Shown here: positions 34,115-61,526 of the stretch, piece by piece
How the letters are laid out: the number at the start of each line of letters is the position of its first letter
Numbering within the stretch: the first letter of the stretch is position 1
Source of the DNA: an uncultured Pseudomonadales bacterium
GTDB lineage: Bacteria > Patescibacteriota > Microgenomatia > UBA1400 > UBA12108
Reading direction: 5' to 3'
NCBI GenBank assembly: GCA_964349305.1
Contig: CAYGFS010000002.1
Location: 425 to 64,424 of the forward strand
DNA: 64,000 bases
Position numbers and translations under genes: made by a program
The notes under the pieces: model-generated
Database searches by the model: none
Seen by the model: the letters and a program-made list of their open reading frames with translations, nothing else
Told to the model about the DNA's origin: nothing

Positions 34115-34237
34115 TGTCGGGCGAAAATTTGTGAGCTCCGGTATTATTTTGGATAGAATACAAAACACTTACCTACTGACGTGTCGCGTATTTTGTTTAA
34201 AGGAAAAATAATAGTGTCGCCAAAATTTTACCCGACA
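34115..34237 (+). mobile_element. ~123-bp MITE-like element with ~16-bp terminal inverted repeats (copy 1)
   Basis: TTGTCGGGCGAAAATTT ... AAAATTTTACCCGACAA termini. About 95% identical to 61403-61526 in the same orientation. The internal sequence resembles a promoter (TTGTGA-N17-TAGAAT). Confidence 0.6.
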
Positions 34238-34249
34238 AATTTCTCATTT

Positions 34250-37200
34250 CTATTTTATGGGATCAGTAGTGGCTGGTTGTTGGAAAATCGGTCTCCCAGA
34301 CTGCTGTGCGTCTGGAGGCATTTCTCGGGTACTGTCATGCTCGATGTGCTGTGATTCGGTGGGTGCGGCGACAGTGGTCGCAATCGGTTCGACGGTGGGG
34401 GCGGCGGCGGGTTGAGGTGGGGTGAGAGCGGAGGCGCGGGACTGGCTGGCGACCAGCTTGTCGGCGAAGGCCCTTTGGTGGTCCAGAGTCTCCTGAGGGT
34501 TCGTGGTAATGAGACTGTGTTCTTCAGGTGAGGCGACTACTTTCATAGCCACGTGGTTTTGGCCGGCGAAGAAGAGGGCCTCGCCAACTTCGGCAGTCAG
34601 CAAGAGGTGGCGTTCTCCCTGGGAGAGGAAGAACGTGGTCGCGAGCTTTTCGATGGCGCTACTGCTTTGTTTCATGAGAACCTGGAGCGAAGAGTTGCTG
34701 ACGATAGCTTTACCGTGATCGCTCTTTAAGAAATCTTCCACGTCTTGAGTGATAGTGGTCAGGCCCAGGAAATATTTACGAGCCCGCTTGGCGATGCCAT
34801 AGAGGAAGGTGGCGGAGTCCTCGGATTTCATGAGATACCACGCCTCATCGACGACCAGGAGACGGCGCTTGAGATCCCTTTTGACCTTGGTCCAAATGTA
34901 GTCGAGAATGATAAAAATGGCAGTGGGGCGGAGCTCGTCGGTCAAGTTTTTGATACCAAAGACGGTGAGCTGATTGCCAAAATTGACATTGGACTTTTGG
35001 GAGAAAATTCCCTGGAAAGAACCCTTAACATATTTTTCGAGCCGGTCGGCCAGACCACGAGCAACTGCCTCTTCCATACCATTTAAGACCTTGTAGAGAT
35101 CTTCCATGAGCGGGGGCTCGAGCTTGTGGGTGGTGGCGTCGCGATTAATGCCTTTCATCTGGTAGGTCATAACCAGGGCGCGATCGAGGAGGGCTTCTTC
35201 TTGGGGATTCATGTCTCCCATCATAATTTTGAGGAGGGAATGGAGAGAAATAATTTTCATGGCCAGCTCGTTTTCGTCGGGCTCGGCCATTTGAGGAAGC
35301 TCAAAAGGATTGATGCGGTTGGGAGAACTAAAAGAGAAGTCAATATAAGTACCGCCGATGGCGTCGGAGAGTTTGCGATACTCGTCTTCGGGATCGATGA
35401 CGATGACTTCGGTGTCGAAAAGGAGGGAGCGCAAGATTTCCAGCTTGACCATATAAGAGTTGTGGACAAAAATCCCCCCTTGGCCAGCCAGGAAAACCTT
35501 GTTTTTAACCTGCAAATCATACACATATGGGTTGTTGTAGGGAACGAGAACTATAGAGGTGATGGGGTCCCAGATGATTTGACTATTGGCTAGTTGATTA
35601 AGATTGGACAAGACAGTGTCGGTCTCTAGAGGAATCTTTAGATTTAGTTTTTTTACTTGCTGGAGACAGGTCTTGATGTGTTTAGAGAGCTCTTTTGACG
35701 ATGGATTGTATTTCCCATTTTTAATATTTATAAAGTTTTGACCTGGTGAAATTTTGTAAGGTAGAAATATGGTTTCGTGGAGTTTTTTGAACAGTGGAGC
35801 AAGCCCAGGAATAAATTCAACATTGGTGTTTGCGGAGATATTTAGTGTGTCTTGGATAATTGTATTTAATTTACCTTGTTTACCCCCATGTACAAAAGAG
35901 ATGTTTTTAGCAAAATTTAGCAGGTTGTTTTGGCCCGAAATTGAGACTCTCCAATAGGGCTGCTTGATCATGGTCGAGTTGGAGGTCCTTTTTTGTGTGG
36001 GATGGATGCGTGCGTGAATATCAAAACGATTGAAAAGTAGACAGAGAGAGTTAATAAGTGATTTGGACTTTGAGACGGCGGTAACCTGTCTGGCCTCTAC
36101 TCCTCCATCTCCATCGAGATATCCGCCAATCATATTGGCAAGACATTGATCGTCGAGGTTAATGGCCCAGGAGGGGAATCGCTTAGTTGAAGCAGTGTGT
36201 CCAACCCCCATTGACTCAATGACGTGTTTAAAAATAGACGAACTAACTCTAATGTCGGTTGGAGTAATAAAATATGGGAAATTTATATCTTTTAATATAT
36301 TTTCTACCTTATCCCGAATTTCTTGATCTCTGTTTGTAATAATAACAACCGCTGCGGCAGTAGACCCTTCAGCGATATAGAGCCCAAGAAGCCAGGCTAG
36401 ATCTGGAGTAATAGTCAGGGTTGTTGGTAGAAGATGATTGGTGCTGTTTTGAATTTGTATTTGAGCTGTTTGGGGGAGTGGTGAACTAACTCTCGATTTT
36501 AATGAATCATAAAGAGCGATGGGGAAAGCTCTACCACCAAAATATTTTTCAGCGTAAGGGCCAGTATATCCAGAGTTTTTTATCCAATCTTTAGCTCCGA
36601 CAATATGAACCCTCATGTCCTTTGCGAGAGCGTCTAATAAATTTAGAGTCGTCGGCTTTCCTTTAACCGGAATAGATCTTGCAATTGGCATATATTCCCC
36701 AACTTTGGCGTTTTTGGCAATGATAGCTTTGATTGCTCCATTCTCGAGTGTTAAGATCTGGTGATCTGGAGTGACAGTTATGGATCTACCAGACTTTGTG
36801 GTGATATGAAGAAGTTCTTTATAGGGATTGAGTTTACGCGCAACTACTTCAACCTTGCTCCACTGGGGTACTAGGTCCGCGTTGTAACTCAGAACTTCTA
36901 ACTCAGGATTTGTAATAGCTTCGCTTTCACCCACCCTGGTTATTGATTTTGAATCTTTGAAGATTTGGTCGACGTATTGACCAATCTTTATCTCAGAAAC
37001 AGTCTCTTTTTGTCGGATCAGGGTGGGCTCGTCGTATCCTAAGCATTTACCGGAACCCGACTTGGCGAAGACCACCATATTGGCATTTTCGAGCGTGAAA
37101 CGATCAAAAACGACGAGCGAGTCATTGTGTTCGTTGATGCCATACATGAGACCCTCATTGGCGGTGAGCTCAGAGCTGGTGAAGGGGAAGGTGGTGGCAA

Positions 37201-37858
37201 GACTGGTCGTGTCCATGTTGCGGTTCATTTTGAGCTTGTCGAGGCCGGTGGGGAGAGTAGTTTTGAAGCCATCCTCGATTTGGAGGCTGGCGGTTTTGGC
37301 CACGATTAGCAGCGCGCCGAGAGCGGACTTGATGTGATTGGTGACGCGATCAAGAATGTCTTTTTTGTCATCCCGGATGGTGATGTAGAGCCCAAACTGG
37401 AAAAAGCGCTCGGCCCCCTTGGCAAGCTGTTCTTGGAGCGAGCGAGCGTCTTCGAGCTTGACCTGCGTGTCGATGTTGATAATGCGGCCGCGCTGAATAT
37501 CTCCCTGGAGCTCGGCCTCCATTTCGGCGATTTTGCGGCGGAGATCTTCGATGACCCCCTTACCGTCGACAGGATAAATAAACATAGAAATAGAGAGGGA
37601 GTGGGGGAAGTTGATCAGAGGACTAAGCCAGTTGGCGTTGACGAAACGAGGGTATCCTGCCACAAAGAGGGTGCGGTAGTAAGTGTCGTTGATTTTGATG
37701 TCGGAGAAATCCACCTCGATGGCTTCGGGGGCAATAATATCTTTGACATTGGTGGTGCCCTGTGACAAAACGGAGACAGAAGGAGAGACTTGGGGTCCAG
37801 AGTCTTTGGGGTCGGTTTTTTTGCCACCAAAAAGAGATGGCAGGTTTAGTTTGGGCAT
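34250..37858 (-). CDS. virB4: T4SS ATPase VirB4/TrbE-like, interrupted in the P-loop by a 529-aa intein
   Basis: Extein N-part ends ...MVVFAKSGSGK (Walker A). Extein resumes SYMVKLEILRSLLFDTEVIVIDPEDEYRKL... with the VirB4 C-terminal ATPase region (...RRLLVVDEAWYLM..., ...GLTTITQDVEDF...). Mature protein ~673 aa. Confidence 0.8.
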   Translation of the reverse strand: MPKLNLPSLFGGKKTDPKDSGPQVSPSVSVLSQGTTNVKDIIAPEAIEVDFSDIKINDTYYRTLFVAGYPRFVNANWLSPLINFPHSLSISMFIYPVDGKGVIEDLRRKIAEMEAELQGDIQRGRIINIDTQVKLEDARSLQEQLAKGAERFFQFGLYITIRDDKKDILDRVTNHIKSALGALLIVAKTASLQIEDGFKTTLPTGLDKLKMNRNMDTTSLATTFPFTSSELTANEGLMYGINEHNDSLVVFDRFTLENANMVVFAKSGSGKCLGYDEPTLIRQKETVSEIKIGQYVDQIFKDSKSITRVGESEAITNPELEVLSYNADLVPQWSKVEVVARKLNPYKELLHITTKSGRSITVTPDHQILTLENGAIKAIIAKNAKVGEYMPIARSIPVKGKPTTLNLLDALAKDMRVHIVGAKDWIKNSGYTGPYAEKYFGGRAFPIALYDSLKSRVSSPLPQTAQIQIQNSTNHLLPTTLTITPDLAWLLGLYIAEGSTAAAVVIITNRDQEIRDKVENILKDINFPYFITPTDIRVSSSIFKHVIESMGVGHTASTKRFPSWAINLDDQCLANMIGGYLDGDGGVEARQVTAVSKSKSLINSLCLLFNRFDIHARIHPTQKRTSNSTMIKQPYWRVSISGQNNLLNFAKNISFVHGGKQGKLNTIIQDTLNISANTNVEFIPGLAPLFKKLHETIFLPYKISPGQNFINIKNGKYNPSSKELSKHIKTCLQQVKKLNLKIPLETDTVLSNLNQLANSQIIWDPITSIVLVPYNNPYVYDLQVKNKVFLAGQGGIFVHNSYMVKLEILRSLLFDTEVIVIDPEDEYRKLSDAIGGTYIDFSFSSPNRINPFELPQMAEPDENELAMKIISLHSLLKIMMGDMNPQEEALLDRALVMTYQMKGINRDATTHKLEPPLMEDLYKVLNGMEEAVARGLADRLEKYVKGSFQGIFSQKSNVNFGNQLTVFGIKNLTDELRPTAIFIILDYIWTKVKRDLKRRLLVVDEAWYLMKSEDSATFLYGIAKRARKYFLGLTTITQDVEDFLKSDHGKAIVSNSSLQVLMKQSSSAIEKLATTFFLSQGERHLLLTAEVGEALFFAGQNHVAMKVVASPEEHSLITTNPQETLDHQRAFADKLVASQSRASALTPPQPAAAPTVEPIATTVAAPTESQHIEHDSTREMPPDAQQSGRPIFQQPATTDPIK
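35459..37045 (-). mobile_element. intein (Hint domain + LAGLIDADG homing endonuclease) within virB4
   Basis: Begins with Cys after GSGK (CLGYDEPTLI, block A). Block B ...TPDHQIL. LAGLIDADG motifs LLGLYIAEGS and IGGYLDGDGG. Ends VYDLQVKNKVFLAGQGGIFVHN, followed by the +1 Ser. Confidence 0.85.
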
Positions 37859-37943: not shown

Positions 37944-38582
37944 TTATTTAGAGATGTTGGGGGCGACGATGGCCTGTTCGTAATCGGAGGCGGTGGTAAA
38001 CTTTTGACCCTTGACCGTGGAGTTGTAGAAACTGTGGAAGAGCTTCATGAGGCTCTGGGAGTTGATTTGCTGGGCCGTCAGACCAATTCTGGCCAGCTGT
38101 TTGATAATGTGGTCGCGCTTGGGCTCGAGATCGGCCTTGGCTTTTAAGATTAGATCCTCGGTGATCTCGACTTTACCAGAGAGGGTGACGAGCTGGTAAG
38201 AAACAACGAGATAGAATTTTTTATCGAGCACGTTTTGCTCGGTAATCGTGGTTTCAATAAAACTCCGATAGGCCTTCATGCGCTCTTTGAGGATTTCGTC
38301 TTTGAGTTTTTTCTCCTGGGCGACTAAAAGTTCGAGATAGGCGCTAATATCTTTTTTCTCTGATTTGATGACGATTTGAATAGGGAAAGAGAGAGAGTTG
38401 AGGAGGCCAGCGTAGGAATAAATGGTGGCGTCTTGCTCTTCTTCTGACAGAAGACCAAAGTTGATGGCGGAGGCTTGGATGACGATGCTACAAACACCAC
38501 TTTTGAGGATCACTAAATCGTCGCGAATGGTTTCGATGTCGAGATGATCTTGGGTGGTGGCGACAATAATTGAGTCGGACAT
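37944..38582 (-). CDS. hypothetical soluble protein, T4SS-associated (212 aa)
   Basis: Immediately upstream of virB4 in the same orientation. Has its own copy of the conserved promoter element. No TM helix and no known motif. Confidence 0.45.
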   Translation of the reverse strand: MSDSIIVATTQDHLDIETIRDDLVILKSGVCSIVIQASAINFGLLSEEEQDATIYSYAGLLNSLSFPIQIVIKSEKKDISAYLELLVAQEKKLKDEILKERMKAYRSFIETTITEQNVLDKKFYLVVSYQLVTLSGKVEITEDLILKAKADLEPKRDHIIKQLARIGLTAQQINSQSLMKLFHSFYNSTVKGQKFTTASDYEQAIVAPNISK

Positions 38583-38585
38583 AAT

Positions 38586-38777
38586 TATTAGTATAACAGG
38601 GAAATATATGTTGTAACCCTGGTTTCCATTTTTTGTTTTTGTGAAGCTCGCTTCAGGAAAAATATCCTCGGGATTTGATTACTCGTCATTTTTCTTGATA
38701 ATGCCCTGCCTGCGCAGGCAGGCTCGACTCTACAATGCACAAAAAACATAAACCAGGATTACTTTACTGATCATTTA
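38586..38777. repeat. repeated intergenic module (promoter-like element + ...TTTTTTGTTTTTGTGAAGCTCGCTTCAGGAAAA... + ...CTACAATGCACAAAAAACATAAACCAGGATT)
   Basis: Shares about 110 bp in two blocks with 52664-52861. This copy has an extra 18-bp perfect palindrome CCTGCCTGCGCAGGCAGG. Confidence 0.75.
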
Positions 38778-39788
38778 TTACTGGGAGCGCAGCTCGATGG
38801 GGGACAGAATTGTGTTGTTGATGGTGATTTGTTGGGGGGCAAAATTTAAATTATCCTTATCTACTTCGATGAGATAGGTGCCGGGAGAGAGGGGGGTAGA
38901 GGTATAAAACTGACCCAGAGAATTAGTTTTCATGGCTCTGGCGGGGATACCACCATCTTCAACAATCTGAACAATGGCGTTTTCGACCAATTTACTGTCG
39001 CGATCGACGACTACTCCCGTCACGAGATTGGGGAACCTGGGAGAGGCGGGAAGGGTGATTTTTTTGGGACTAGAAATGATCGGCGAGACCTTGGTGGTGC
39101 TAGCGGCGGTTGGGGCGCTAAAAATAAGACTAGGAGCGGGAGTGGGTTCGGATTTACTGGGAGGTGGTGTCGTGGCGGAGGATCCAACTATAGTATTTTG
39201 AGTTTTGGGAATATTTAAAATAACATCCGATACGGCCTCTACTGGTTTGAGTTTGCGGACGGCGATGCTTGGCTTTTCAACCTCCTCGATTTTTTGGACG
39301 ACTATTTTTTGTTCTTGTGGGGGGGTGGGGGGAGTGGTGGTAAAGAGTGAGTCGAGAGATTTAATCAAATTGGTCTCGGACTCGGTGAGGTCGGAGACGG
39401 CTTTGTTGGTACTGGCGGCAACGGGAGCCTTGATAGTTTTAGTAACAGTATTAACCACATCGGGAGCATGAGCCTCAAACAGAAAAAGGTGGGGGATTTT
39501 GTTGGTTTTTTGCCAGATGAATCTAGTGGGAGCATAAATAGCCTTGATAAAATTGATGATCCACTGGTCGAGAGGGCGGTCTTCGATGGGAAAGAAAGCC
39601 AGTCCGGCCCCAAAAAGAATGGAGAGAATAATGAGAGGCCATTTGATGATAAAAATGAGATTGCTGGCGAAGAAAAGATAGGCCAGCCCCAGTCCAATAC
39701 AAAGCTCGAGAAACTGCTTGAGGGTCATGTCTCCAACTAGGCGGAATTGATACTGAGTGACGTTTTGGGGGATGGGATGCTGCTGCAT
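38778..39788 (-). CDS. VirB3/PrgI-like two-TM membrane protein fused to an S/T/P-rich linker and a C-terminal beta-sandwich (carboxypeptidase-regulatory-like) domain
   Basis: N-terminal 100 aa carry two TM helices (LELCIGLGLAYLFFASNLIFII; WPLIILSILFGAGLAFF). Low-complexity PTPP/S/T linker. C-terminal ...GVVVDRDSKLVENAIVQIVEDGG...GTYLIEVDKDNLNF... Sits upstream of virB4. Confidence 0.4.
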   Translation of the reverse strand: MQQHPIPQNVTQYQFRLVGDMTLKQFLELCIGLGLAYLFFASNLIFIIKWPLIILSILFGAGLAFFPIEDRPLDQWIINFIKAIYAPTRFIWQKTNKIPHLFLFEAHAPDVVNTVTKTIKAPVAASTNKAVSDLTESETNLIKSLDSLFTTTPPTPPQEQKIVVQKIEEVEKPSIAVRKLKPVEAVSDVILNIPKTQNTIVGSSATTPPPSKSEPTPAPSLIFSAPTAASTTKVSPIISSPKKITLPASPRFPNLVTGVVVDRDSKLVENAIVQIVEDGGIPARAMKTNSLGQFYTSTPLSPGTYLIEVDKDNLNFAPQQITINNTILSPIELRSQ

Positions 39789-39859
39789 ATATATTCAGTT
39801 TACCAGACAATCAGAAAACCCAGAAAGCCAGATGACCCGATAATCGGGTTGTCAGAAAT

Positions 39860-40147
39860 TTAACTGTTGGCGTATTGGTGGAGGATGGAACCGGCCAGGG
39901 TTTGATATTTTAATCCTAGTTTAGCGGCCTTATCACGCAATGCCTGTTTAGTGCTATATGAAACACGAATATTAATATTCTCGTCTTTTTTCATCAATCT
40001 GAGAGTATTTTCGGCGGCCTTTTTAAGAACTGCTAGTTCTTTTTTGGAAACTGGCTTTAGAGATGGATCGTCTGGTAGGGACCTTTCAATTTCTTGCTCA
40101 TACTCGTCAAGAACGAGATTTTTGAATGGATCGAACTTTTTTTTCAT
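39860..40147 (-). CDS. brnA: BrnA-family antitoxin
   Basis: C-terminal ...NINIRVSYSTKQALRDKAAKLGLKYQTLAGSILHQYA matches the BrnA (CopG-like) pattern. 4-bp overlap with the upstream brnT. Downstream hairpin CCCGATAATCGGG. Confidence 0.65.
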   Translation of the reverse strand: MKKKFDPFKNLVLDEYEQEIERSLPDDPSLKPVSKKELAVLKKAAENTLRLMKKDENINIRVSYSTKQALRDKAAKLGLKYQTLAGSILHQYANS

Positions 40148-40425
40148 ATGCCTCCTTTTTTATTGTATTGCTTTTGATATTTTCTACTGGGATAAATAGT
40201 TTTTAGAAATATACTTTGCTGTTCCTTGACGTATGGGACTGCATAGGCGTAGTTATTTATAAAGACTATGTAAATATGTTGCCTGCTATATTTTTGTAAA
40301 TTGGGATTTGGAATAGAAATCGTATCTCTGTTGGACTTTAAAGCTTCGACAATTTGTTCAAATCCAATTCCTCGAGTTTGTTTAAGTAATTGATTTTTCT
40401 CCTCATTCCAAGAATACTTGAGCAT
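40144..40425 (-). CDS. brnT: BrnT-family toxin (DUF497 ribonuclease)
   Basis: N-terminus MLKYSWNEEKNQLLKQTRGIGFEQIVEAL matches the BrnT F.WD..K...N..KHG..F.E pattern. Confidence 0.65.
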   Translation of the reverse strand: MLKYSWNEEKNQLLKQTRGIGFEQIVEALKSNRDTISIPNPNLQKYSRQHIYIVFINNYAYAVPYVKEQQSIFLKTIYPSRKYQKQYNKKGGI

Positions 40426-40462
40426 TAATTACAATATATGACATTGTGCGCACTTTGTCAAA

Positions 40463-41098
40463 TTATGGTTTGAGAGACGTCGAAGGAGCGATGACATATT
40501 TGTGGGCAGTGGCATCGCCGCCGTTTTGGGTGACCCAAGATTTAACTTCTTCTATCACCTCCGACGAGGAAGCCGTCTGGTTTTTGAGCGCGATTTCGAG
40601 AGTCATGGGGGCAGAATAGACGACTCGGAAACCTGGTCGATTGAGGGGAAGCTTTTGACCTAGCGGATAATCTCGAGCTAACTCAGTTTTCATGTTTTCA
40701 ATCAATATGGGGTCGGTTTGACTGGACTGAGTAACAAAAACTAGAGTATAAATGGTTTTGTTGTTCCAGGTAGTTGTGGTTGTATATTGAGTCGATGGTT
40801 GGAGTGGGCGCTTGGGAGCGAGGGTAATGACGTTTTCTTTGGTTTGGGATATATCAAAGGGAGTTTCTGGAGAGAGGGAAAACTGGAGCTCCGATACGAC
40901 AATAGGGTCTTTAAACGTATATGTGAGCGGATTGAAGATGGGATAGTTTTGAGTGTTGGATTCTGGATTAGTGGTCGAAACAACCGGCGTTTTAGCCCGA
41001 ATACTCATAATTGTTACTATTACTAGAACCACAACAGTTAAGCCTCCGAGAATTTTGAGTGCCAGGATTTGTTTGGGAGTAAAAATTGTGGTGATCAT
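40463..41098 (-). CDS. bitopic membrane protein (N-terminal TM + ~180-aa external domain); VirB8/PrgL-like candidate
   Basis: Single TM (ILALKILGGLTVVVLVIVTIMSI). ATGA start/stop overlap with the upstream CHAP-hydrolase gene. Assignment rests on topology and context only. Confidence 0.35.
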   Translation of the reverse strand: MITTIFTPKQILALKILGGLTVVVLVIVTIMSIRAKTPVVSTTNPESNTQNYPIFNPLTYTFKDPIVVSELQFSLSPETPFDISQTKENVITLAPKRPLQPSTQYTTTTTWNNKTIYTLVFVTQSSQTDPILIENMKTELARDYPLGQKLPLNRPGFRVVYSAPMTLEIALKNQTASSSEVIEEVKSWVTQNGGDATAHKYVIAPSTSLKP

Positions 41099-52861: not shown

Positions 52862-53269
52862 TTAGTAGGCTTTGGGCGGGGTGATGTTGCCGTCTAAGAT
52901 GTTGATGCCGAAGAAGTAGGAGATGATCAACATGATGGCCCAGGCGGACGCGACGACAGCTAGACCCACGAGGGCAGCAGTAATGCGGTCGCGAGCTTCT
53001 TGGGTTTTACCCTTGTCACCACCACTGGTGATCCACTGGATACCACCCCAAATGAGGAACATAAAGACGAGCAGAGCAGAGACCACAATGGCTCCCTGGA
53101 CGACGCCTTGGATGAGGGTTCCGATATTGGTGATGGCGACGTTTTCTGGCTTGCCGATGGAGAGATCGGGGGCACCGGGGGCGGCGGCTTGGACTTTTGA
53201 GATGAATTGATCGAACATAATGGTTTCTCCTTTATTTATTAGTGTAGTGAGTATTTTATCATTTAGCAA
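52862..53269 (-). CDS. VirB2/TrbC-like T4SS pilin paralog
   Basis: ...IWGGIQWITSGGDKGKTQEARDRITAALVGLAVV... Confidence 0.65.
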   Translation of the reverse strand: MLNDKILTTLINKGETIMFDQFISKVQAAAPGAPDLSIGKPENVAITNIGTLIQGVVQGAIVVSALLVFMFLIWGGIQWITSGGDKGKTQEARDRITAALVGLAVVASAWAIMLIISYFFGINILDGNITPPKAY

Positions 53270-53567
53270 GGCCTATGCCAAAGAAGTAATCGAGGAGCAA
53301 ATAAACCGCCCAAGCAGAGGCGACGATAGCGAGTCCGATAATCCCGTTGGTGATTTTGGCTCTGGCTTCTTCGAGCTTGCCCTTGTCGCCACCACTCATA
53401 ATCCACTGGACGCCGCCGTAGATGAGATACATAAAAGTGGCAAGGCCAGCGACGAGGATGATGGCCGAGAATACCTTGCTGACAAAACTGCCAAGATCAG
53501 TGTTGATGGCTACCCGAGATTGGGTTTCGTCGCCGATATTGACACTAAAAGATCCGCTGTTTGCCAT
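53259..53567 (-). CDS. VirB2/TrbC-like T4SS pilin paralog
   Basis: ...IYGGVQWIMSGGDKGKLEEARAKITNGIIGLAIV... Confidence 0.65.
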   Translation of the reverse strand: MANSGSFSVNIGDETQSRVAINTDLGSFVSKVFSAIILVAGLATFMYLIYGGVQWIMSGGDKGKLEEARAKITNGIIGLAIVASAWAVYLLLDYFFGIGLAK

Positions 53568-53571
53568 AAGT

Positions 53572-53907
53572 TTATCCTGCTGTAGGCCAACTAATATTTA
53601 AGAGATTCATGCCGATCGCGGTTTCGATAAATTTGATGATGACATAGGAAGCGGCGAGGATGGCGAGTCCAACCAGTCCCTGGGTAATTTTGCCCCGAGC
53701 CTCTTCGATTTTGCCTTTGTCGCCGCCAGCAGTGATCCAAGTAAGACCACCCTGGAGGAAGTAGAGGAGGAAGGCTAGACCGCCGACCAAAATGATCGTT
53801 TGCCAAAGAGTAGCGACGGTAATGGCGAACTGCTTGGGTGAGTCGTCGGGCGAGGAGCCACCAGGGACGGCGACGTTAGTAATTTGAGCAATGAGTCGGT
53901 TGTTCAT
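53572..53907 (-). CDS. VirB2/TrbC-like T4SS pilin paralog
   Basis: ...LQGGLTWITAGGDKGKIEEARGKITQGLVGLAIL... Confidence 0.65.
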   Translation of the reverse strand: MNNRLIAQITNVAVPGGSSPDDSPKQFAITVATLWQTIILVGGLAFLLYFLQGGLTWITAGGDKGKIEEARGKITQGLVGLAILAASYVIIKFIETAIGMNLLNISWPTAG

Positions 53908-53909
53908 AT

Positions 53910-54272
53910 TTAATTGACCTTGATATTGTTAATGAGACTGCCGGGGTTGAGGATGTCGATTCCGAGGGCCTTGCCGACAATCCAGACGATGGCATATGAG
54001 ACGGCAATGACGATGATGCCAGTGGCACCGCCCGTCATCATGCCCTTGGCTTTGTCGATCTTGCCTTTGTCACCACCAGCCGTGATCCAATTGAGGCCGC
54101 CCAACAGGAAGTAAAGAGTGAAGGCGATCCCGGCCACGACAGTCAAAACCACTAAAACGTTACTAATGAGCTTTTCAACGGCACTGGTTGATCCCTCGAT
54201 GCCACCACCTGGCTGATAGCCTCCCGGGGTGGTAATTTGCTGGAAACCGATGTCGGCGATGAGTTTGGACAT
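53910..54272 (-). CDS. VirB2/TrbC-like T4SS pilin paralog
   Basis: ...LLGGLNWITAGGDKGKIDKAKGMMTGGATGIIVI... Confidence 0.65.
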   Translation of the reverse strand: MSKLIADIGFQQITTPGGYQPGGGIEGSTSAVEKLISNVLVVLTVVAGIAFTLYFLLGGLNWITAGGDKGKIDKAKGMMTGGATGIIVIAVSYAIVWIVGKALGIDILNPGSLINNIKVN

Positions 54273-54274
54273 AA

Positions 54275-54616
54275 TTAAATACTCCCTGGGCCGGTAATTT
54301 TAGGTGACAGAATTGCGGTGGCGCTGCCGAAGAGGAGGTACGAGACGATCCCAGTAACGGCCGCAGCAGCCACCATGACTACGAGCCCAATGAGGGACAT
54401 GTTGATTTGGGCGGTAGCCGCCTCAATCTTTTTGGTGTCACCGGCGGAAGTAACATAGCTAAACCCGGCAATCATGAGGTTGAAAAAAGCAAAAATACCG
54501 GCACCTGCAAAGATGATGGTGATGACATTGGTGATAAAAGTGGGAAGACCTGAACCAACGTCGCCGTATCCAGTGAGAGGTGACTTGATGGTTTCGCCTA
54601 ACAAATCGTTTGCCAT
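54275..54616 (-). CDS. VirB2/TrbC-like T4SS pilin paralog (divergent)
   Basis: ...MIAGFSYVTSAGDTKKIEAATAQINMSLIGLVVM... Confidence 0.6.
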   Translation of the reverse strand: MANDLLGETIKSPLTGYGDVGSGLPTFITNVITIIFAGAGIFAFFNLMIAGFSYVTSAGDTKKIEAATAQINMSLIGLVVMVAAAAVTGIVSYLLFGSATAILSPKITGPGSI

Positions 54617-54620
54617 ATGT

Positions 54621-54929
54621 TTAGTTTAAGATAGATACTCCGGTAATGACCTGGATAATTTGGATTATCCAGTAGGAACCAAAGAGTACCAACATGCCCA
54701 TTATAGCAGAGGTGATAACTTTGGTGCCATCGGCGATTTTGTCTTTGTTGCCGGCGTTGGCTATGATGGTGAATCCACCGAAGAGAATCATGAAGAAAAT
54801 AACAACTCCGCCGGCGATATAGACGTTGGGGAGAATGTTGTTGACTAGACTCCCTGCTCCAGAATATTCTGAGTTGGCGGAGGAACCTTGGAAGAGCAAT
54901 TTATCGCCAAGATTGAAGGATGTTGCCAT
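54621..54929 (-). CDS. VirB2/TrbC-like T4SS pilin paralog (divergent; first gene of the array)
   Basis: ...LFGGFTIIANAGNKDKIADGTKVITSAIMGMLVL... Confidence 0.6.
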   Translation of the reverse strand: MATSFNLGDKLLFQGSSANSEYSGAGSLVNNILPNVYIAGGVVIFFMILFGGFTIIANAGNKDKIADGTKVITSAIMGMLVLFGSYWIIQIIQVITGVSILN

Positions 54930-55057
54930 GGGAAAATTATAGCACCTTGATTACTCATCAATCCAAACAATTTTGCAGTACTCACAGCTTTCTGGATAGA
55001 CCAGATGAGACGCTCCGTGCTTAAAATTATTTGGACTTGATGAGTTTTTGGTAGAAT
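54930..55057. promoter_or_regulatory. divergent promoter region between the pilin array and the ECF sigma gene, with extended -10 (TGGTAGAAT)
   Basis: TTGGAC-N15/16-TGgTAGAAT on the plus strand, ending 1-7 nt before the sigma-factor start codons (GTG 55058 / ATG 55064). Confidence 0.4.
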
Positions 55058-55597
55058 GTGCTGATGGACTTAATTGTAAAAGAGGTTTTGGAAGGGAAGA
55101 AGGGCGCGGCGACGGCTTTTTACCGGGCGTATGCGGCGAAACTGAGGAGATATTTGTTAGTTAAATTGCCTGAGTCGGAAGTGGAAGAGATCTTGCAAGA
55201 CACTTTTCTATCTGCATTTGATAGTTTGGCGCTGTATCGAGGCGAATCTAGTGTTTACACTTGGTTACTATCGATTGCTCGGCACGAAGTGGCTGACTTT
55301 TACCGCAAACGATATGTGCGAGAGGTTGTGGAGAAAACATCGCCGCTGTTTGAGAATATGGTGTCAGAAGTGATGTCGCCTGAATTTGTCTATGAAAAAA
55401 AGAAACTGGAGAGACGATTTATGGGAGCTTACAGAGCACTATCGACACAATATCAGGATGTGCTGTCGTATAGATATGAGCTGTCGATGAGCGTGCGCGA
55501 GATTGCCAATCGAATGGAACTAGGTCTAAAGGCGACAGAATCGCTATTGTTTAGGGCAAGAATCGCATTTAGAGCAGAATATGAAAGCAGAGCGTAA
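55058..55597 (+). CDS. ECF-type RNA polymerase sigma factor (sigma-70 regions 2 and 4)
   Basis: Region 2 ...ILQDTFLSAFDSLALYRGESSVYTWLLSIARHEVADFYRK. Region 4 ...LSYRYELSMSVREIANRMELGLKATESLLFRARIAFR. Confidence 0.75.
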   Translation: MLMDLIVKEVLEGKKGAATAFYRAYAAKLRRYLLVKLPESEVEEILQDTFLSAFDSLALYRGESSVYTWLLSIARHEVADFYRKRYVREVVEKTSPLFENMVSEVMSPEFVYEKKKLERRFMGAYRALSTQYQDVLSYRYELSMSVREIANRMELGLKATESLLFRARIAFRAEYESRA

Positions 55598-55814
55598 CTT
55601 TATACAAGAGCTAGAGGATAAGGCGAGAGAACAGCAAAGGTTGGTGCAGACAGAATTGATCCCGGGTTGGGCGAGGGGACTAGGAGGGTGGCTGGCGGTA
55701 AATCCGTGGAGAGTACTCGTGCCGGCAGCGGCGGTTTTATATGTTTTGTTGCGAGTGGGTATGGGAGTGGGATACAGAGACTTTATTCTTGGATTGTTTG
55801 GAGGATTTAATTAA
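55581..55814 (+). CDS. small single-TM protein, candidate anti-sigma factor
   Basis: Immediately downstream of, and overlapping, the ECF sigma gene. One TM (VLVPAAAVLYVLLRVGMGV). Confidence 0.35.
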   Translation: MKAERNFIQELEDKAREQQRLVQTELIPGWARGLGGWLAVNPWRVLVPAAAVLYVLLRVGMGVGYRDFILGLFGGFN

Positions 55815-56153
55815 ATGAACCAATATACCAATAAACCATTAAACAATTGGGGCGCGATGGGGGCGTGGATGGCGTATGTCTGGAGTGTGACCCTGGCGGG
55901 GCTGGCGATCCACCCGTACCAGTCGGTGCGACGGATGGTGCTGAACAAGCCAGTATTATTGCCGGTGGCGCTGTCACCAGTCCTGGGACTCCTTGGATTA
56001 TTTGTGACGGGAAGAGTGGGGAGTTATGTATTTACCCTGGGTTCAATCGGGCGGGAAATGGTGGCGATGGTGCTGGGAAGCACGCTGATTGGATTATTGT
56101 TGTGGCAAGGACTCTTATTGTTCTTGGTGGTGAGGTTTTGGCGGGCGAGGTAA
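55815..56153 (+). CDS. small membrane protein (3 TM)
   Basis: Hydrophobic ORF in the same operon as the sigma/anti-sigma pair. Confidence 0.35.
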   Translation: MNQYTNKPLNNWGAMGAWMAYVWSVTLAGLAIHPYQSVRRMVLNKPVLLPVALSPVLGLLGLFVTGRVGSYVFTLGSIGREMVAMVLGSTLIGLLLWQGLLLFLVVRFWRAR

Positions 56154-56682
56154 TTTTAGAGAATGATTTGGTGGTGGTGGGCGACTAAGTTTGGATATGC
56201 ATATGCAAAATCAAGAGTATTCGGCACCCGCAGTTTGGAGGGAACATAAAAGATTGTGGTTGTTAAATCAAGCAAGTCTGAGGATTGCGATGGCGGATGC
56301 GAAGGAGAAAATGTTACAAAATGAAAGTGAGTATGAGGAAAATTTAGGGGTTGGCTTAATAACTCAAGTCTTGGCGTCAGAAGTTGTGGCTAACGAATGA
56401 TTTTTGCCGGTTGCTAGGACTAGTTGATTTCAGTGCTACGAAAAACATAATTTTGGAGGTAAGCATGTCAGTTGAAGCACAAGTGGAGCGAATATTAGGT
56501 TTACAGTTGTTACCTCAAGCACTGTATGAAATGAAGCTGGAAGTAGAGGCGAGAATTGATGCACACATTGATTTGTTATCAGCCTCGAACACTGCTAGAG
56601 GCAATGATTATTGTGAAGTGCTTGAGGCGTTGGAACAAATAATTAGAGCGATCGAATGATTTTTGGAAAATATGCGACTTAA

Positions 56683-57252
56683 TTGTTTATGAATAGACAG
56701 GTTGTGCTGGTTGATGTGCTGGATAAGGAGCTAGGGTTGGCGGATATTTATGAAGCACACATGGGGAAGGGTTTAAAACACAGGGCTCTTTCGGTGATTT
56801 TGTATCGTAGAGTGAATGGGAAAACAGAACTATTGCACCAGAAGAGGGCGGATGCCAAGCCGGTGTTCAAGGGGCTCTGGAGCAATACATGTTGTACCAA
56901 CTTGAGACCAGGAGATGAGTATTTGTCCAGAGCAGTATCGCGACTTGAAGAGGAGATGGGAATTAAAATATCTCAAGTCGACTTACGCATACTTTATCGA
57001 TTTAGCTACGAGGCTCAGGATGTAAACCGTCCAGGATGGTGTGAGAACGAGGTTGACACGGTAATTGTGGCAGAGTGGGACAGCGAAGTAAAACCAAACC
57101 CAGCGGAGGCCTCGGACTACAAATGGATTGAGTGGGAAGAGTTGAAAAAAGATATAGAAGTAAGTCCGGACACCTATTCACCTTGGCACAAAATGATTAT
57201 TAATGATCCACGGTTTGTGGAGGAGGTAAAAAATGTGCCAATCATGCGATAA
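56683..57252 (+). CDS. idi: isopentenyl-diphosphate delta-isomerase, type 1 (Nudix fold)
   Basis: ...HRALSVILYRRVNGKTELLHQKRADAKPVFKGLWSNTCCTNLRPGDEY...AVSRLEEEMGI. The catalytic Cys-containing NTCC motif and the EEMG glutamate are as in IDI-1. Confidence 0.8.
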   Translation: MFMNRQVVLVDVLDKELGLADIYEAHMGKGLKHRALSVILYRRVNGKTELLHQKRADAKPVFKGLWSNTCCTNLRPGDEYLSRAVSRLEEEMGIKISQVDLRILYRFSYEAQDVNRPGWCENEVDTVIVAEWDSEVKPNPAEASDYKWIEWEELKKDIEVSPDTYSPWHKMIINDPRFVEEVKNVPIMR

Positions 57253-57468
57253 ACTTAAATCACAGGGGGTAGTAATTCCAGCTAATCCACCTGAGCACAA
57301 TAACGCTTACCTGGAAGGTGATATCCCCGTGTTTGTGAGTGGTAAGGAACTTGTAGCCTGGTTTGAACAAAAATTTGTTCACGCTGCGTTTGGTGATGCC
57401 GCGTGGGATGGTCAACCAAGGTTTGATGGTCAGGTTTTACACATCGACGCTTACAATTAAGTCTGTAT

Positions 57469-58263
57469 ATGAAGAAACTAATTCTACTTAAAATAGGAGG
57501 AGGAGTAATAACAGACAAGAGCGTACATTACGGCTTGAGGGAAGATGTGTTGGTCAGACTAGCGAAGGAGATAAGCGAAGCCCAGAGCGAACTGAAGGGC
57601 ACAAAACTCATTATAGGTAATGGGGCTGGTAGTTTTGCCCACTTTTCGGCACACAAATATCGGACAACGGAAGGGTTTGTAAACGATGATAGTCGGATAG
57701 GGATGGGGTGGGTAAGGCACGACGCGGTGAAACTGAATCAAATAGTATTTGAACAACTTTTGACTGCAAATGTGCCGGTTTTTTCCTTTTCACCGTCATC
57801 TTTGATGAGCGTACACAACGGCAAAACTAAGACGGTTTTTATGGATTCTGTAATTGATGCCATGGAAAAAGGGATTGTGCCACTAGTGTATGGGGATGTG
57901 GTGGTGGACTCTATGAAAGGGTGCGACGTGTATTCGACGGAAAAAGTATTTGACGAACTAGCAAAGTATTTTACTGAGGACTACGAGGTAAGGGTAATCC
58001 ACATCAGTTCGGAGGAAGGGGTATATAAAAAGGGGCAAGCGAGTGTGTTTAGCGAGATTAGTGGGGCCAATATTGAGGAAGTAAAAAAACATTTGGGAGG
58101 ATCACACGGGGTGGACGTATCGGGAGGGATGCTACATAAGGTAGAGGAGTGTTTGGAACTAACAAAACTAGGGATAACTAGTCAAATAGTGAGCGGGATG
58201 ATTCCCGAGCGAGTGCGCGAGGCAATACTAGGCAAGAAAGTGAAAGGAACGACCATCAAATGA
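57469..58263 (+). CDS. isopentenyl phosphate kinase (amino-acid-kinase fold)
   Basis: MKKLILLKIGGGVITDKSVHYGL... and ...LIIGNGAGSFAHFSAHKY match the archaeal-type IPK N-terminal and His-containing motifs. Confidence 0.7.
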   Translation: MKKLILLKIGGGVITDKSVHYGLREDVLVRLAKEISEAQSELKGTKLIIGNGAGSFAHFSAHKYRTTEGFVNDDSRIGMGWVRHDAVKLNQIVFEQLLTANVPVFSFSPSSLMSVHNGKTKTVFMDSVIDAMEKGIVPLVYGDVVVDSMKGCDVYSTEKVFDELAKYFTEDYEVRVIHISSEEGVYKKGQASVFSEISGANIEEVKKHLGGSHGVDVSGGMLHKVEECLELTKLGITSQIVSGMIPERVREAILGKKVKGTTIK

Positions 58264-58973
58264 CGTTGGAAAAAACAAAAATACCCAAACACGTAGCCAT
58301 TATTATGGATGGAAATCGGAGGTGGGCGAAGAAACGAGGACTTGCGGCCGTGGCGGGACATGCATTTGCGGTTGATTCGGTAACAGAACAACTGATTGAG
58401 CGAGCGGGTGAACTGGGAATAAAATATTTAACACTATGGGCATTTAGTACGGAAAATTGGAAGAGAGATAAGGATGAAGTGGATGGGCTAATGAATTTGT
58501 TTCGCAAAGCCCTTATGACCAAAGTGCAGAAATTTATTGAGAAGGGAGCTAAGCTACAGATGATAGGCGACATGTCCCGATTTGCACCAGATATCCAAGA
58601 AGGGATGAAAAAAGCGATGGCGGCAAGTGCCCAAAACACCAAAATTACGGTGACGTTTGCACTGAATTATGGGGGAAGGGATGAGATTGTGAGGGCGGTA
58701 AATCGGTTAATGGTTGACCGCAAAAGTTCCGATCACTCGCCTATAATCACGCAAGGATCGGAACTAGAACAATACCTAGATACGGCAGGAATGCCGGATC
58801 CAGATCTGATCATAAGAACGGGAGGAGAGCAGAGGCTGTCGGGGTTCCTCATGTGGCAGGCGGCATATAGTGAATTGTATTTTACGGAGATATTGTTTCC
58901 GGATTTTGGGCCGGAACAACTAGATGGCGCAATTGAAGAGTTTCAAAGTAGGCAGAGACGATTTGGGAAGTAG
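58260..58973 (+). CDS. uppS: undecaprenyl-diphosphate synthase (cis-prenyltransferase)
   Basis: HVAIIMDGNRRWAKKRGL. ...TLWAFSTENWKRDKDEV. C-terminal RTGGEQRLSGFLMWQAAYSELYF. Confidence 0.9.
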   Translation: MTLEKTKIPKHVAIIMDGNRRWAKKRGLAAVAGHAFAVDSVTEQLIERAGELGIKYLTLWAFSTENWKRDKDEVDGLMNLFRKALMTKVQKFIEKGAKLQMIGDMSRFAPDIQEGMKKAMAASAQNTKITVTFALNYGGRDEIVRAVNRLMVDRKSSDHSPIITQGSELEQYLDTAGMPDPDLIIRTGGEQRLSGFLMWQAAYSELYFTEILFPDFGPEQLDGAIEEFQSRQRRFGK

Positions 58974-58976
58974 ATT

Positions 58977-59276
58977 TTAAGAAAGTATGCTCACCTTAAA
59001 TATCACTTGGAGGATCTGGGCGATCCAGTAGGAGAGGAAGATGACAAAGAATCCAACGAGCGAGCTGGTGACCATCTTCTTACCTTTTTCCTGAGATTCC
59101 TTGTCCGCTGCGCCAGTCAGCATAGTGAAGCCGCCCATCACGAGCATGCCAAAGAGGATCAGACCAGCAACAGAGAGGAGAGTGGGGAGAAAACTGTTGA
59201 TAATGCCGCCAATACTGTCGCTGCCGCTATTTAAGCCAATGGCTTGGTTATAGTCTCCGTAGGGTATGTCGGCCAT
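58977..59276 (-). CDS. VirB2/TrbC-like T4SS pilin paralog
   Basis: ...VMGGFTMLTGAADKESQEKGKKMVTSSLVGFFVI... Confidence 0.6.
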   Translation of the reverse strand: MADIPYGDYNQAIGLNSGSDSIGGIINSFLPTLLSVAGLILFGMLVMGGFTMLTGAADKESQEKGKKMVTSSLVGFFVIFLSYWIAQILQVIFKVSILS

Positions 59277-59295
59277 ATGTTATCCTCCAGTGTAC

Positions 59296-59703
59296 TTAAA
59301 ATCCTGGTAATTGAATGATATCACCAGCAATAATTTTGAGGAGGGTGACCGAAAAAATAATAAAGAGTAATCCGGTGATGGCGCCGGTAAAGAGTTCTTT
59401 GCCTTTTTTGACTTGCTCGGCATTGTCGCCACCCGTCATGATTTGAATGGTGGCGGCCAGCATGATGACTAGCGAGATGGCGCCTGCGGTGCCGGCAAGA
59501 AAAGTAAGTAGCTGAGCCGTGAATCCCTGAGTGTCAACACTCATACAGCCAAGGGCGGTTTCGATCCCTTTGCCGCCATTGCATTCTTGGGGGCCTGCCG
59601 CGTGAGCAAAATAGGGAAAGATGAGACCCGCCGCCGCTAAAGCTAGAGCGGGCAAGTATGTTAGGATGGTAGCATGCCTGTGCTCTGGAAAAAACTTTTT
59701 CAT
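59296..59703 (-). CDS. VirB2/TrbC-like T4SS pilin paralog (closest relative of the C-terminus of the 960-aa protein)
   Basis: Signal peptide ending AHAAGPQ. ...LAATIQIMTGGDNAEQVKKGKELFTGAITGLLFIIFSVTLLKIIAGDIIQLPGF. Confidence 0.65.
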   Translation of the reverse strand: MKKFFPEHRHATILTYLPALALAAAGLIFPYFAHAAGPQECNGGKGIETALGCMSVDTQGFTAQLLTFLAGTAGAISLVIMLAATIQIMTGGDNAEQVKKGKELFTGAITGLLFIIFSVTLLKIIAGDIIQLPGF

Positions 59704-61386
59704 ATTGGATTAATTGCCATCTTTGTAACGGCTTTTATTGTATCATACCAGACAGCTAGCGCCGAAAGTTTGGAGGAGATCGAAAAGCAAATAGCCGACC
59801 TGCAGCAGCAAATGCAGCAGTCGGTGGCGGCCACGACTCCGCTTGAGTCAGAAGTGGCCAAGCTAAGTAAACAACTGGGTGGAATACAGGCTCAAATAAG
59901 GGATTCAGAAGTTAGACTCCAGACACTAGAAGCTAGTATTAAGGACAGAGACCAAAAAATTAAATCACAGTATGTTGTACTGGCAGCGAAGGTGCGAGAC
60001 TTGTACAAAAAATCGCGGCACTACTCACCACTCCTCGTATTTGCGTCGTCGAGTAGTGCGAGTGAACTCACCAGAGGGTTGGCATATAAGGCGGCGGGGG
60101 CGGATGAAGACAAAAACCTGATTGTAAACATTACCACCGATATTTTGAGTTTAGAAGCGGATAAGAAGAAAATTGAAGCAGATAAAATTAGGCTCGCGGG
60201 ACTCCAAGCAAAACTAGATACGCAGAAAGCCTTTTTTGAAAAAGAGATTGCAGGGGCAAAGAAGTGGCAGGCAGAGCTGTCGGGGAAAATTGCGACGCTT
60301 ACGGCAAAACAACAAGCAATTTTGTCGGAGAAATCGGGAACGTTTCAGACTACGGTAGGGGACGTACCTCTCGCGGATGACCCGGCGTCGCGTCCGGATT
60401 ATAACCCTGGATTTTCACCTGCTTTTGCGATGTTTAGCTTTGGGGCGCCGCATTTTAAAGGAATGAGTCAGTACGGAGCCTTTGGTCGTGCCAAGTCAGG
60501 TCAGACATATGAACAAATACTGAAAGCCTACTATGGCGGAGGGATAGAGATTAAAGACCACAATCCAGACGTACAAATAAAGGTTGATGGATATGGGAGT
60601 TTTAGTTTAGAGGATTATGCGAAGAGGATTTATGAAATGCCGGGGAGTTGGGGGGATGAGGGTGGGATGGAAGCACTCAAAGCACAGGCGATTGCGGCGA
60701 GGAGTTATGCCCTGGCGCGGACTAATAACGGAGCTACCTCGATTTGTGCGACCGAAGCATGTCAGGTATTTAAGCCGAGCCCTAAGGGCGGTAAATGGGA
60801 AGAAGCGGTCAATGCCACTAGGGGTAAAGTGGTATATGCTGGTGGATCGCCGTTGTCGACCTGGTATGCTTCTACCTCGGGCGGTTACCAGGAGTCGTAT
60901 AGCGCGAATGGTCATTCTACCCCGGGATTTTGGGATACTCCGTCAGGCCAAGCGGGCTGGACTGGGCAGGCCTACGAAAAAACAGCCGGGAGTCCGTGGT
61001 TTTATAAGGCTTGGTACAAATCGAGATCAGGAGACGCCTGTGGCAGAACTCACCCATGGCTGAATAGTGAAGAAATGGCAGATATTTTAAACGCTTGGCA
61101 CGTGTTGTTTAGTGGCGGCGGCGACGCTAGCCGAGTGACGCCGGAGTCTGGGTGTTGGGGAGGCAACCCCTACACTAAAGCCGATTTGCGCGGAATAGGT
61201 GGGTTTAGCAGTGTATCAGGAGTGAGCGTGACGTATGCGAACAACGGGGTCACGGCCAACGTGACGTTCCAGACGAATAAGGGGTCAACCACGATGTCGG
61301 GGGCCGATTTCCGGAAAGCTTTTAACCTGCGGGCACCGGGGAGGATATCGCTCAAATCGGGGTTGTTTAATGTGGAGAAAAAATAG
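59674..61386 (+). CDS. SpoIID/LytB-domain cell-wall hydrolase/amidase enhancer with N-terminal TM and coiled-coil region
   Basis: SpoIID motif ...GMSQYGAFGRAKSGQTYEQILKAYYGG. N-terminal signal-anchor and Gln/Lys-rich coiled coil (PcsB-like). Start may be an internal GTG, given the 30-bp overlap with the pilin gene. Confidence 0.65.
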   Translation: MPVLWKKLFHIGLIAIFVTAFIVSYQTASAESLEEIEKQIADLQQQMQQSVAATTPLESEVAKLSKQLGGIQAQIRDSEVRLQTLEASIKDRDQKIKSQYVVLAAKVRDLYKKSRHYSPLLVFASSSSASELTRGLAYKAAGADEDKNLIVNITTDILSLEADKKKIEADKIRLAGLQAKLDTQKAFFEKEIAGAKKWQAELSGKIATLTAKQQAILSEKSGTFQTTVGDVPLADDPASRPDYNPGFSPAFAMFSFGAPHFKGMSQYGAFGRAKSGQTYEQILKAYYGGGIEIKDHNPDVQIKVDGYGSFSLEDYAKRIYEMPGSWGDEGGMEALKAQAIAARSYALARTNNGATSICATEACQVFKPSPKGGKWEEAVNATRGKVVYAGGSPLSTWYASTSGGYQESYSANGHSTPGFWDTPSGQAGWTGQAYEKTAGSPWFYKAWYKSRSGDACGRTHPWLNSEEMADILNAWHVLFSGGGDASRVTPESGCWGGNPYTKADLRGIGGFSSVSGVSVTYANNGVTANVTFQTNKGSTTMSGADFRKAFNLRAPGRISLKSGLFNVEKK

Positions 61387-61402
61387 TGATTCGGAAAACC
61401 TC

Positions 61403-61526
61403 GTCCGACGAAAATTTGTGAGCTCCGGTATTATTTTGGATAGAGTACAAAATACTTGCCTACTGAAGTGTCGCGCATTTTGTTTAAAGGAAAAATAATA
61501 GTGTCGCCAAAATTTTATCAGTCGAG
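61403..61526 (+). mobile_element. ~123-bp MITE-like element (copy 2)
   Basis: About 95% identical over ~112 bp to 34115-34237, same orientation. The terminal inverted repeat is less perfect here. Confidence 0.6.

Follow-up and report, generated by a model that had tools for sequence, protein, structure and literature searches.

A palindromic repeat family, probably forming terminator-like hairpins at operon ends, beside the conserved type IV secretion region of a Microgenomatia genome

We analysed a stretch of 64,000 nucleotides (nt) of contig CAYGFS010000002.1 (assembly GCA_964349305.1; hereafter the window), which carries two copies of a long-hairpin element, w1 (copy 1) and w2 (copy 2), in direct orientation and 27.3 kb apart. 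Copy 1 (34114..34238, + strand) lies between the convergent 3' ends of the sliding-clamp gene dnaN (33005..34102, +; dnaA is at 31415-32770) and a gene for a VirB4/TraG-type ATPase (34250..37858, −), and copy 2 (61400..61526, +) lies between the stop codon of a gene for a SpoIID-domain peptidoglycan hydrolase (59674..61386, +) and a promoter-like motif of a bPH-domain gene (61577-62254, +). The rest of a conserved chromosomal region resembling a type IV secretion system (T4SS) occupies 37944..59703, as judged from Pfam scans and synteny with relatives. The motif before the bPH-domain gene, TGTGCTAACAT (61560..61579, +), was read directly from the sequence as an extended −10-like motif with a putative promoter function, and the ATG of the gene follows 6 nt on; since this motif is kept in relatives without the element, copy 2 appears to be placed between the end of one transcription unit and the predicted promoter of the next.

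Both copies are well defined. A repeat search of the window returned one two-copy family (34106-34245 / 61393-61532), a 35-mer of the element occurs exactly twice in the window (0 expected), and a covariance model scores the copies at 163.7 and 165.4 bits on the + strand, against only 34-38 bits on the − strand. Both copies recur, in the same context, in independent assemblies of this organism (L001, L003), and the Logan contig L002 stops inside copy 1. The original prediction, made from the letters of the window, had described two direct 123-bp copies of about 95% identity with terminal inverted repeats of about 16 bp in copy 1. The copies are indeed real and direct, but the high identity (104/109, 95.4%) belongs to a 109-nt core (34122-34230 / 61409-61517) and falls to 89.6% over the full 123/124 nt; inverted ends are likewise present (TTGTCGGGCGAAAATTT / AAATTTTACCCGACAA), but copy 1 starts one base earlier, at 34114, and the entire element, not its ends alone, is a single long imperfect hairpin, into which each copy folds on either strand (folding z for copy 1 = −3.4 on the + strand and −4.5 on the − strand). 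The distances given for the two stop codons, 13 and 17 nt, need correction: the hairpin of copy 1 begins 11 nt after the dnaN stop codon (34100-34102), and that of copy 2 begins 13 nt after the SpoIID stop. In copy 1 the core is closed by the outer stem TTGTCGGG / CCCGACAA, with an A-tract (GGAAAAGC) before and a T-rich tail (ATTTCTCATTTC) after the element; in copy 2 the outer stem is CTCGTCCGA / TCAGTCGAG, with the A-tract GGAAAAC before and TTTTT (61527-61531) after.

Comparison of long-form copies from several genomes separated the element into parts of very different variability. Throughout the long-form copies two inverted arms, AAAATTTGTGAGCTCCGGTATTATTTT and AAAATAATAGTGTCGCCAAAATTTT, are nearly invariant (each arm with no more than one substitution among the six copies), the apex is moderately variable, and the outer stem is strongly variable yet always complementary, with compensatory changes. 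A MAFFT/RNAalifold analysis of six sequences gave 50 pairs, 17 of them with compensatory changes. For nine members, 91% of cells were paired (vs. 79% when shuffled), 27/50 pairs were changed on both sides, 0/500 shuffles reached the observed values and structures slid by 1-3 columns retained only 43-49% pairing; these figures are somewhat inflated because the nine-member alignment was fitted to the model, whereas the six-sequence run is independent of it. The hairpin is thus supported by covariation. Rfam, to which the original prediction had pointed as a check, gave 0 matches in the window at gathering thresholds (best sub-threshold E = 2.3 in a permissive search).

Between genomes, core identity is 81-95%, whereas dnaN of the window and of its sister species L005 agree at only 33% of fourfold-degenerate sites, that is, at saturation, so the arms are either strongly constrained or recently renewed. 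No conserved open reading frame (ORF) exists in the ~125-nt element: a 26-codon frame shows mostly non-synonymous differences and is frameshifted in L004. Small ORFs were accordingly discarded as candidates, both this 26-codon frame, which begins at a GTG in the left arm, and one led by a Shine-Dalgarno-like AAGGA and a GTG in the right arm, as they are unconserved and their frames differ or run into the flanks. An internal promoter was also rejected, as the TAGAAT-like hexamer in the internal loop is unconserved (TAGAGT, TAGTAT, TTGAGT), its spacing to the TG is unlike that of the local extended −10 motif, and a scan gave weak minus-strand matches only. Neither counts of G.U vs. A.C nor the folding of both strands singled out one strand.

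Public collections were scanned by sequence alone, and this yielded three further long-form copies, found without bias. One lies directly after lspA in an lgt-dksA-lspA context (L004), one between an ion-channel gene and a 5'-3' exonuclease gene of a Microgenomates metagenome-assembled genome (MAG; L012), and one (L013; CAZGNX010000004.1) is flanked by an ATP-dependent DNA ligase gene and a divergent Fic gene; none of the three has T4SS genes among its immediate neighbours. The MAG of L013 is labelled 'uncultured Pseudomonadales' despite its bona fide copy of the element, and this label or the binning looks doubtful. A scan of species-representative genomes gave single matches in two genomes only, and there were 0 matches in a first genome-collection scan with a 24-mer and 0 in scans of viral contigs with the element. 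A profile and a covariance model, built from the long-form copies and used to detect short and diverged members, found a short form of ~100 nt twice in L018/L019 (at the UppS and the SpoIID 3' ends) and diverged members between a gene of ~563-586 amino acids (aa) and smpB in L015, L022 and L021. In the same ~563-586-aa gene/smpB spacer of L003 (~14565-14725, just past the window) a long hairpin starting with CTTGTC was recognised by eye, although the profile and the covariance model both fail to call it. What sets the short form apart from the long one is a nested hairpin at the apex. The long form is known from independent loci (n=5), to which the short and diverged forms are added, and relatives have dnaN 3' and SpoIID 3' sites that are empty of the element. 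This family consists of ~100-150-nt palindromic intergenic elements of Woesebacteria/Microgenomatia, found after unrelated genes.

Wherever an independent locus has an upstream gene, which is the case six times, the element is co-oriented with that gene (the 3' ends of dnaN, SpoIID, UppS, lspA, the ion-channel gene and the ~563-586-aa gene before smpB), and the covariance model gives long-form copies 148-165 bits in the gene-sense orientation vs. 18-38 bits in the opposite one. Long-form copies start 5-17 nt past the stop codon, or overlap it in L004. A T-rich tail follows w1, w2, L005, L018a, L018b, L012, L015b and L003c (e.g. TTTTTCTC for copy 2, TCTTTTTCT for L005), GGAAAA stands before several copies, which therefore have a T-run on the other strand too, and the next gene opens with an extended −10-like motif (TGTGCTAACAT, TAGGGTAAAAT or TGGTACAAT) ending 6-8 nt before its ATG. 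Judged from sequence, this layout is most likely that of a terminator or insulator between transcription units. Like bidirectional intrinsic (Rho-independent) terminators, the elements stand just after stop codons, between convergent genes or before the promoter of the next gene, with an A-tract before and a T-tract after several copies; unlike these terminators, which have 5-12 GC-rich pairs and a small loop, they have an AT-rich stem of ~50 pairs with many internal loops, and their interior is conserved in sequence. Of the two explanations that the original prediction had set side by side, that of a terminator or structured RNA employed again at the end of a second operon is therefore the one supported in outline, by the unrelated contexts, the polarity and the hairpin, with termination itself as a predicted consequence.

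Hairpins at such sites are gained or lost between strains of this clade, as we observed directly for a sister family. L015 and L022 are two assemblies of the same species (SpoIID 99.94% identical at the nt level), and after the SpoIID stop L015 (11702-11760) differs from L022 (10714-10730) by a clean 43-nt palindromic insertion, CAAGGTCTGACCTTGTAG...CTACAAGATCAGACCTT, of the AGGTCTGACC family; the empty site in L022, TAATTCCTT joined directly to TAATCGCAG, is not palindromic. The insertion may have a CCTT/TT duplication. The AGGTCTGACC family is also present at the dnaN 3' end in L007/L008/L009.

We reasoned that these observations are best brought together, with a probability of roughly 55%, if a palindromic family akin to miniature inverted-repeat transposable elements (MITEs) and to REPINs, hairpin-forming doublets of repetitive extragenic palindromic (REP) sequences, occupies operon-end spacers and probably serves there as terminator/insulator hairpins; a selfish-repeat origin of the end-of-operon (terminator-like) hairpin is most likely. 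In such a scheme, elements would occupy short spacers at the ends of transcription units and would spread or be replaced via duplication, insertion or gene conversion; transcription from the upstream gene would then produce a long hairpin with an A-tract on one side and a U-tract on the other, which most likely would terminate or insulate transcription (in both directions where genes converge) and protect the mRNA 3' end. Several findings weigh against this. Copy number looks low, with 2 copies in 64 kb and a single match per genome in database scans. No target-site duplication is present in the flanks of w1, w2, L004, L012 and L013, which are instead mutually complementary, and the window and ~250 kb of related loci yielded neither a transposase nor a REP-associated tyrosine transposase (RAYT). 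The two strands do not differ in how well they fold (consensus −36.8 vs. −39.0 kcal/mol). L004 and L013 have no T-run, and L013 lies between divergent genes; moreover, a consensus scan for intrinsic terminators calls neither window copy, because their loop and stem are atypical. Finally, the outer stems of copies 1 and 2 are identical at 12/20 positions only (104/109 in the core), so copy-paste of whole hairpins is insufficient by itself, and it takes either gene conversion acting on the core or old copies held under strong constraint to explain this; the divergence within this genome points to one of these two.

Known classes of repeats share much with the element but none fits it fully. Bacterial MITEs, ERIC/IRU (~127 bp) and the Correia elements of Neisseria are non-coding imperfect palindromes of ~100-150 bp in intergenic, transcribed regions; they often lie at the 3' ends of genes, can fold into RNA hairpins and have in some cases been recruited as terminators or processing sites. 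The element resembles them in its length, imperfect palindrome, intergenic transcribed site, location at gene 3' ends and hairpin, but no target-site duplication and, in the window and the related loci, no matching insertion sequence was seen, its copy number appears low, and its arms show cross-species conservation far above neutral expectation. The label 'MITE-like' in the original prediction is therefore only partly borne out: the element is short (~125 nt), non-coding, bounded by inverted ends (the end sequence against which those of a cognate transposase would be matched is TTGTCGGRCGAAAATTT), dispersed, and present or absent at orthologous sites; we do not file it as a strict MITE because no target-site duplication and no cognate transposase were seen. 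REPINs, REP doublets of Proteobacteria that form hairpins (Bertels & Rainey; PMC3337134), come close as well, being likewise extragenic, ~90-120 nt long and built of two highly conserved inverted sequences around a variable spacer that keeps the hairpin, with variation in spacer length, clean strain-level gain or loss and a likely effect on the expression of neighbours. The present elements differ in that no RAYT (Y1/HUH transposase) was seen and only a few copies appear to occur per genome (tens to hundreds for REPINs), for which reasons we do not file them as REPINs; in addition, their arms are not themselves short REP-type palindromes, an extra variable outer stem lies outside the arms, and the host is a Patescibacterium. 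An integron attC site was rejected, as the ends TTGTCGGGC ... ACCCGACAA are without AAC/GTT core sites (RYYYAAC ... GTTRRRY) and copies 27 kb apart do not have gene-cassette spacing.

Literature searches gave nothing relevant on earlier descriptions of such elements in this lineage, where none appears to have been reported, and what is new here is modest: a first description of REPIN/MITE-like long-hairpin families in the very compact genomes of Woesebacteria, a lineage of Patescibacteria. These families cluster at operon ends and change between close relatives, and the conservation of their arms is far above neutral. Should the elements indeed stop or insulate transcription, they would illustrate how organisms whose extended −10-like motifs nearly abut start codons set the boundaries of their transcription units, and the covariance model could be used for annotating them.

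Among the rivals, we consider possible, but rather unlikely, that the conserved core is a vertically inherited functional module, a structured RNA or protein-binding site under purifying selection that is not currently mobile and for which termination is incidental; it might take the form of a cis element borne by the 3' untranslated region (3' UTR) or of a processed small RNA. Such a module would account for arms that are almost invariant across species with saturated synonymous sites, for the persistence of the element at the dnaN 3' site in both the window and L005, for the covariation pattern of an RNA closing stem, for the uniform orientation relative to genes and for the low copy number. 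Two G.U pairs that are invariant on the + strand among nine members also agree with it and are the only feature to favour the sense strand, and 3/5 independent long-form loci adjoin replication or repair genes (dnaN, 5'-3' exonuclease, DNA ligase). However, the reverse strand folds as well, Rfam gave no match, no promoter is conserved and neither is the internal −10-like hexamer, and the contexts are otherwise unrelated. Moreover, w1 and L005, although orthologous, are 86% identical, which does not exceed the 88% of non-orthologous pairs between genomes, and the hairpin at this site in the sister taxon L023 is a different one, so the data fit vertical inheritance under constraint and repeated spread alike. 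It is more doubtful that the invariant arms are a specific RNA or DNA recognition module kept by purifying selection across Woesebacteria, that is, a previously undescribed cis-acting class. If so, the element might be a mobile 'terminator cassette' to which a dedicated protein binds or, alternatively, a 3'-UTR RNA that co-regulates the T4SS borders together with dnaN, the 5'-3' exonuclease and the DNA ligase.

We judge it improbable that a small palindromic element inserts specifically into the loops of pre-existing terminator hairpins, which would make the outer stems old terminators. Complementarity specific to each locus does extend beyond the core (7 pairs in L012, ~5 in L013, the A-tract/T-tract in w1 and w2), within this genome the cores are 95% and the outer stems ~60% identical, and a nested apex hairpin is what distinguishes short from long forms. 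On the contrary, the outer stems are homologous across unrelated loci, with the CTTGTCGGAC type in w1, L005, L018a, L018b and L013, and at the one clean empty site available, that of the AGGTCTGACC family in L015 vs. L022, it is the whole hairpin that was inserted, into a site that is not palindromic.

For the 27 kb between the copies, the original prediction had offered, as one of two alternatives, a T4SS module moved or inverted by the two repeats. Synteny with relatives bears on this at both ends. dnaA-dnaN converges on virB4 in all relatives examined, but at the dnaN 3' site only the sister species L005 (DnaN 84% identical) has the element, and this at the orthologous position. L006 (DnaN 81%) has a 15-nt spacer between dnaN and virB4 and L020 a 51-nt spacer, both without the element, L007/L008 (DnaN 80%) have an unrelated 88-nt hairpin with a AAGGTCTGACCTG stem at this junction, and the sister taxon L023 (DnaN 85%) has yet another hairpin. 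At the other end, the order SpoIID, bPH, DUF5657, ~563-586-aa gene and smpB is kept in L015, L016, L021 and L022, none of which has the long form after SpoIID. In the Woesebacteria genome GCA_020049755 (contig JAHZTO010000034), dnaN and SpoIID are separated by 26.7 kb in the gene order of the window, with the long form at neither end. Conservation of the region, with its two junctions, extends to relatives whose DnaN identity is as low as 50%, and the same sites hold other hairpins in L007, L015, L016, L021 and L023. We rejected the idea that the dnaN 3' and SpoIID 3' sites are paired, always holding the same family and acting together, as GCA_020049755 has a long hairpin at the SpoIID end and none at dnaN.

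Close relatives with the identical region but no flanking repeats, named in the original prediction as the finding that would speak against it, are thus what the synteny comparison revealed. That the two direct repeats are recombination or transposition substrates delimiting a mobile or invertible 27-kb T4SS module is therefore highly improbable: although they enclose every recognisable secretion gene of the window, and although in L018 the block ending at SpoIID is rearranged relative to other relatives and has short-form elements at its edges, both junctions and the whole ~27-kb span are conserved without the element, copies found by sequence elsewhere stand in unrelated contexts with no T4SS genes next to them, the independent contigs L001 and L003 show standard junctions only, the window has no integrase, transposase, relaxase or coupling protein, and Patescibacteria as a rule have a relaxase-less, origin-proximal chromosomal T4SS (PMC12102498). 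On the preferred reading, a copy stands at either side of the T4SS region because that region begins and ends at operon ends, and the copies neither set its limits nor move it. An integrative and conjugative element or genomic island would call for such mobility genes and for a bounded region that varies among relatives, which this one does not, and a composite transposon is at odds with flanking copies that are 125 nt long and non-coding. This removes a tempting but wrong inference, that of a Patescibacteria T4SS cluster as a repeat-bounded mobile island.

The gene content, assigned by Pfam scans of all sizeable ORFs of the window, agrees with what is already described. Between the copies we found the VirB4/TraG-type ATPase, a PrgI (VirB3-like) protein, a TraC-like protein of 212 aa, 11 ORFs matching T4SS_pilin PF18895 (6 above the Pfam curated cut-off and 5 weaker), an ECF-type sigma factor, a NUDIX protein, a protein with an amino-acid-kinase fold (IPK), UppS and SpoIID, and 37944..59703 also holds large proteins without family match. 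The gene list of the original prediction is therefore confirmed for virB4, the VirB3-like gene, the pilins, the sigma factor, the NUDIX/IPK/UppS genes and SpoIID, but not for CHAP, VirB6 and VirB8, which have no Pfam match between the copies; its statement that no integrase, relaxase, coupling protein or tRNA is visible holds for the whole window, where the Pfam scans found none of the former and no transposase, and a scan for tRNA and tmRNA found none. The closest relatives of DnaN, SpoIID and the 212-aa protein come from MAGs named Microgenomates group, Woesebacteria or Patescibacteria. The T4SS of Patescibacteria is chromosomal and related to the MPF_FATA class, is usually without relaxase and coupling protein, and in Microgenomatia typically adjoins dnaA/dnaN (PMC12102498). 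The enclosed region matches this in VirB4, the PrgI/VirB3-like protein, the arrays of PF18895 VirB2-like pilins, the lack of relaxase and coupling protein and the place next to dnaA/dnaN, and there is no essential difference, the VirB4 intein and the flanking hairpins being local details. It is a conserved chromosomal core feature already described, not an island.

Some further details of these genes may be recorded. The VirB4-type ATPase owes its length of 1202 aa to an intein (about residues 313-800) that includes a LAGLIDADG homing-endonuclease domain, whereas VirB4 has 627-669 aa and no intein in all relatives examined. A weak BrnT/BrnA-like toxin-antitoxin pair (93 + 95 aa; 39860-40425, −) lies inside the T4SS region, and ORFs of similar size occur in L007/L008. 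Relatives carry mevalonate-pathway genes, with thiolase and HMG-CoA synthase in L015, L022 and L018 and HMG-CoA reductase in L015 and L018; in L015 (2532-6212) and L022 (1533-4059) they stand after the sigma factor and before the NUDIX gene or in the reverse order, that is, between these two, whereas L018 (7093-10484) has another arrangement of the block, and the matching position of the window (55600-56680) has two small unannotated ORFs only.

The window holds several hairpin families with few copies each, and given these other two-copy families and the turnover described above, two copies of one element at operon ends 27 kb apart are unremarkable. A second, unrelated long-hairpin repeat of ~150 nt is present at 38612..38761 (−; z = −4.2) and, upstream of the 93-aa pilin gene, at 52697..52818 (−). 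Its arms are ~95% identical and one copy has an extra GC-rich apex insertion; each copy follows one T4SS gene, and close behind it come an extended −10-like motif and the start of another, which is the 212-aa TraC-like gene in one case and the 93-aa pilin gene in the other. A 73-nt hairpin repeat, GGTTCCGATCT...AGATCGGAACC (22514-22586 and 28901-28973, 82% identical), has its first copy between convergent genes and its second inside the longest ORF of a Wzy_C-type gene, so that either this ORF is over-called or the element lies within coding sequence. The GC-rich perfect palindrome AGCCTGCGAGGACAGTCCTCGCAGG stands on both sides (17522-17546 and 18117-18146) of a GNAT acetyltransferase gene (17611-18090), with two weaker copies at 8449 and 28613. 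A AATTCTCAAATTCTCAAATT-type repeat occurs six times (3801, 26740, 27380, 28154, 28865 and 30779), and three of its copies extend to ~80 nt, spaced 774 and 711 nt apart in the polysaccharide-synthesis/Wzy stretch. Short AAACCAAT/TAAACCAAT tandem motifs are found at 22262, 28441, 31137-31178 and 55802, one set of which falls in the spacer between rnpA and dnaA, the expected place of oriC.

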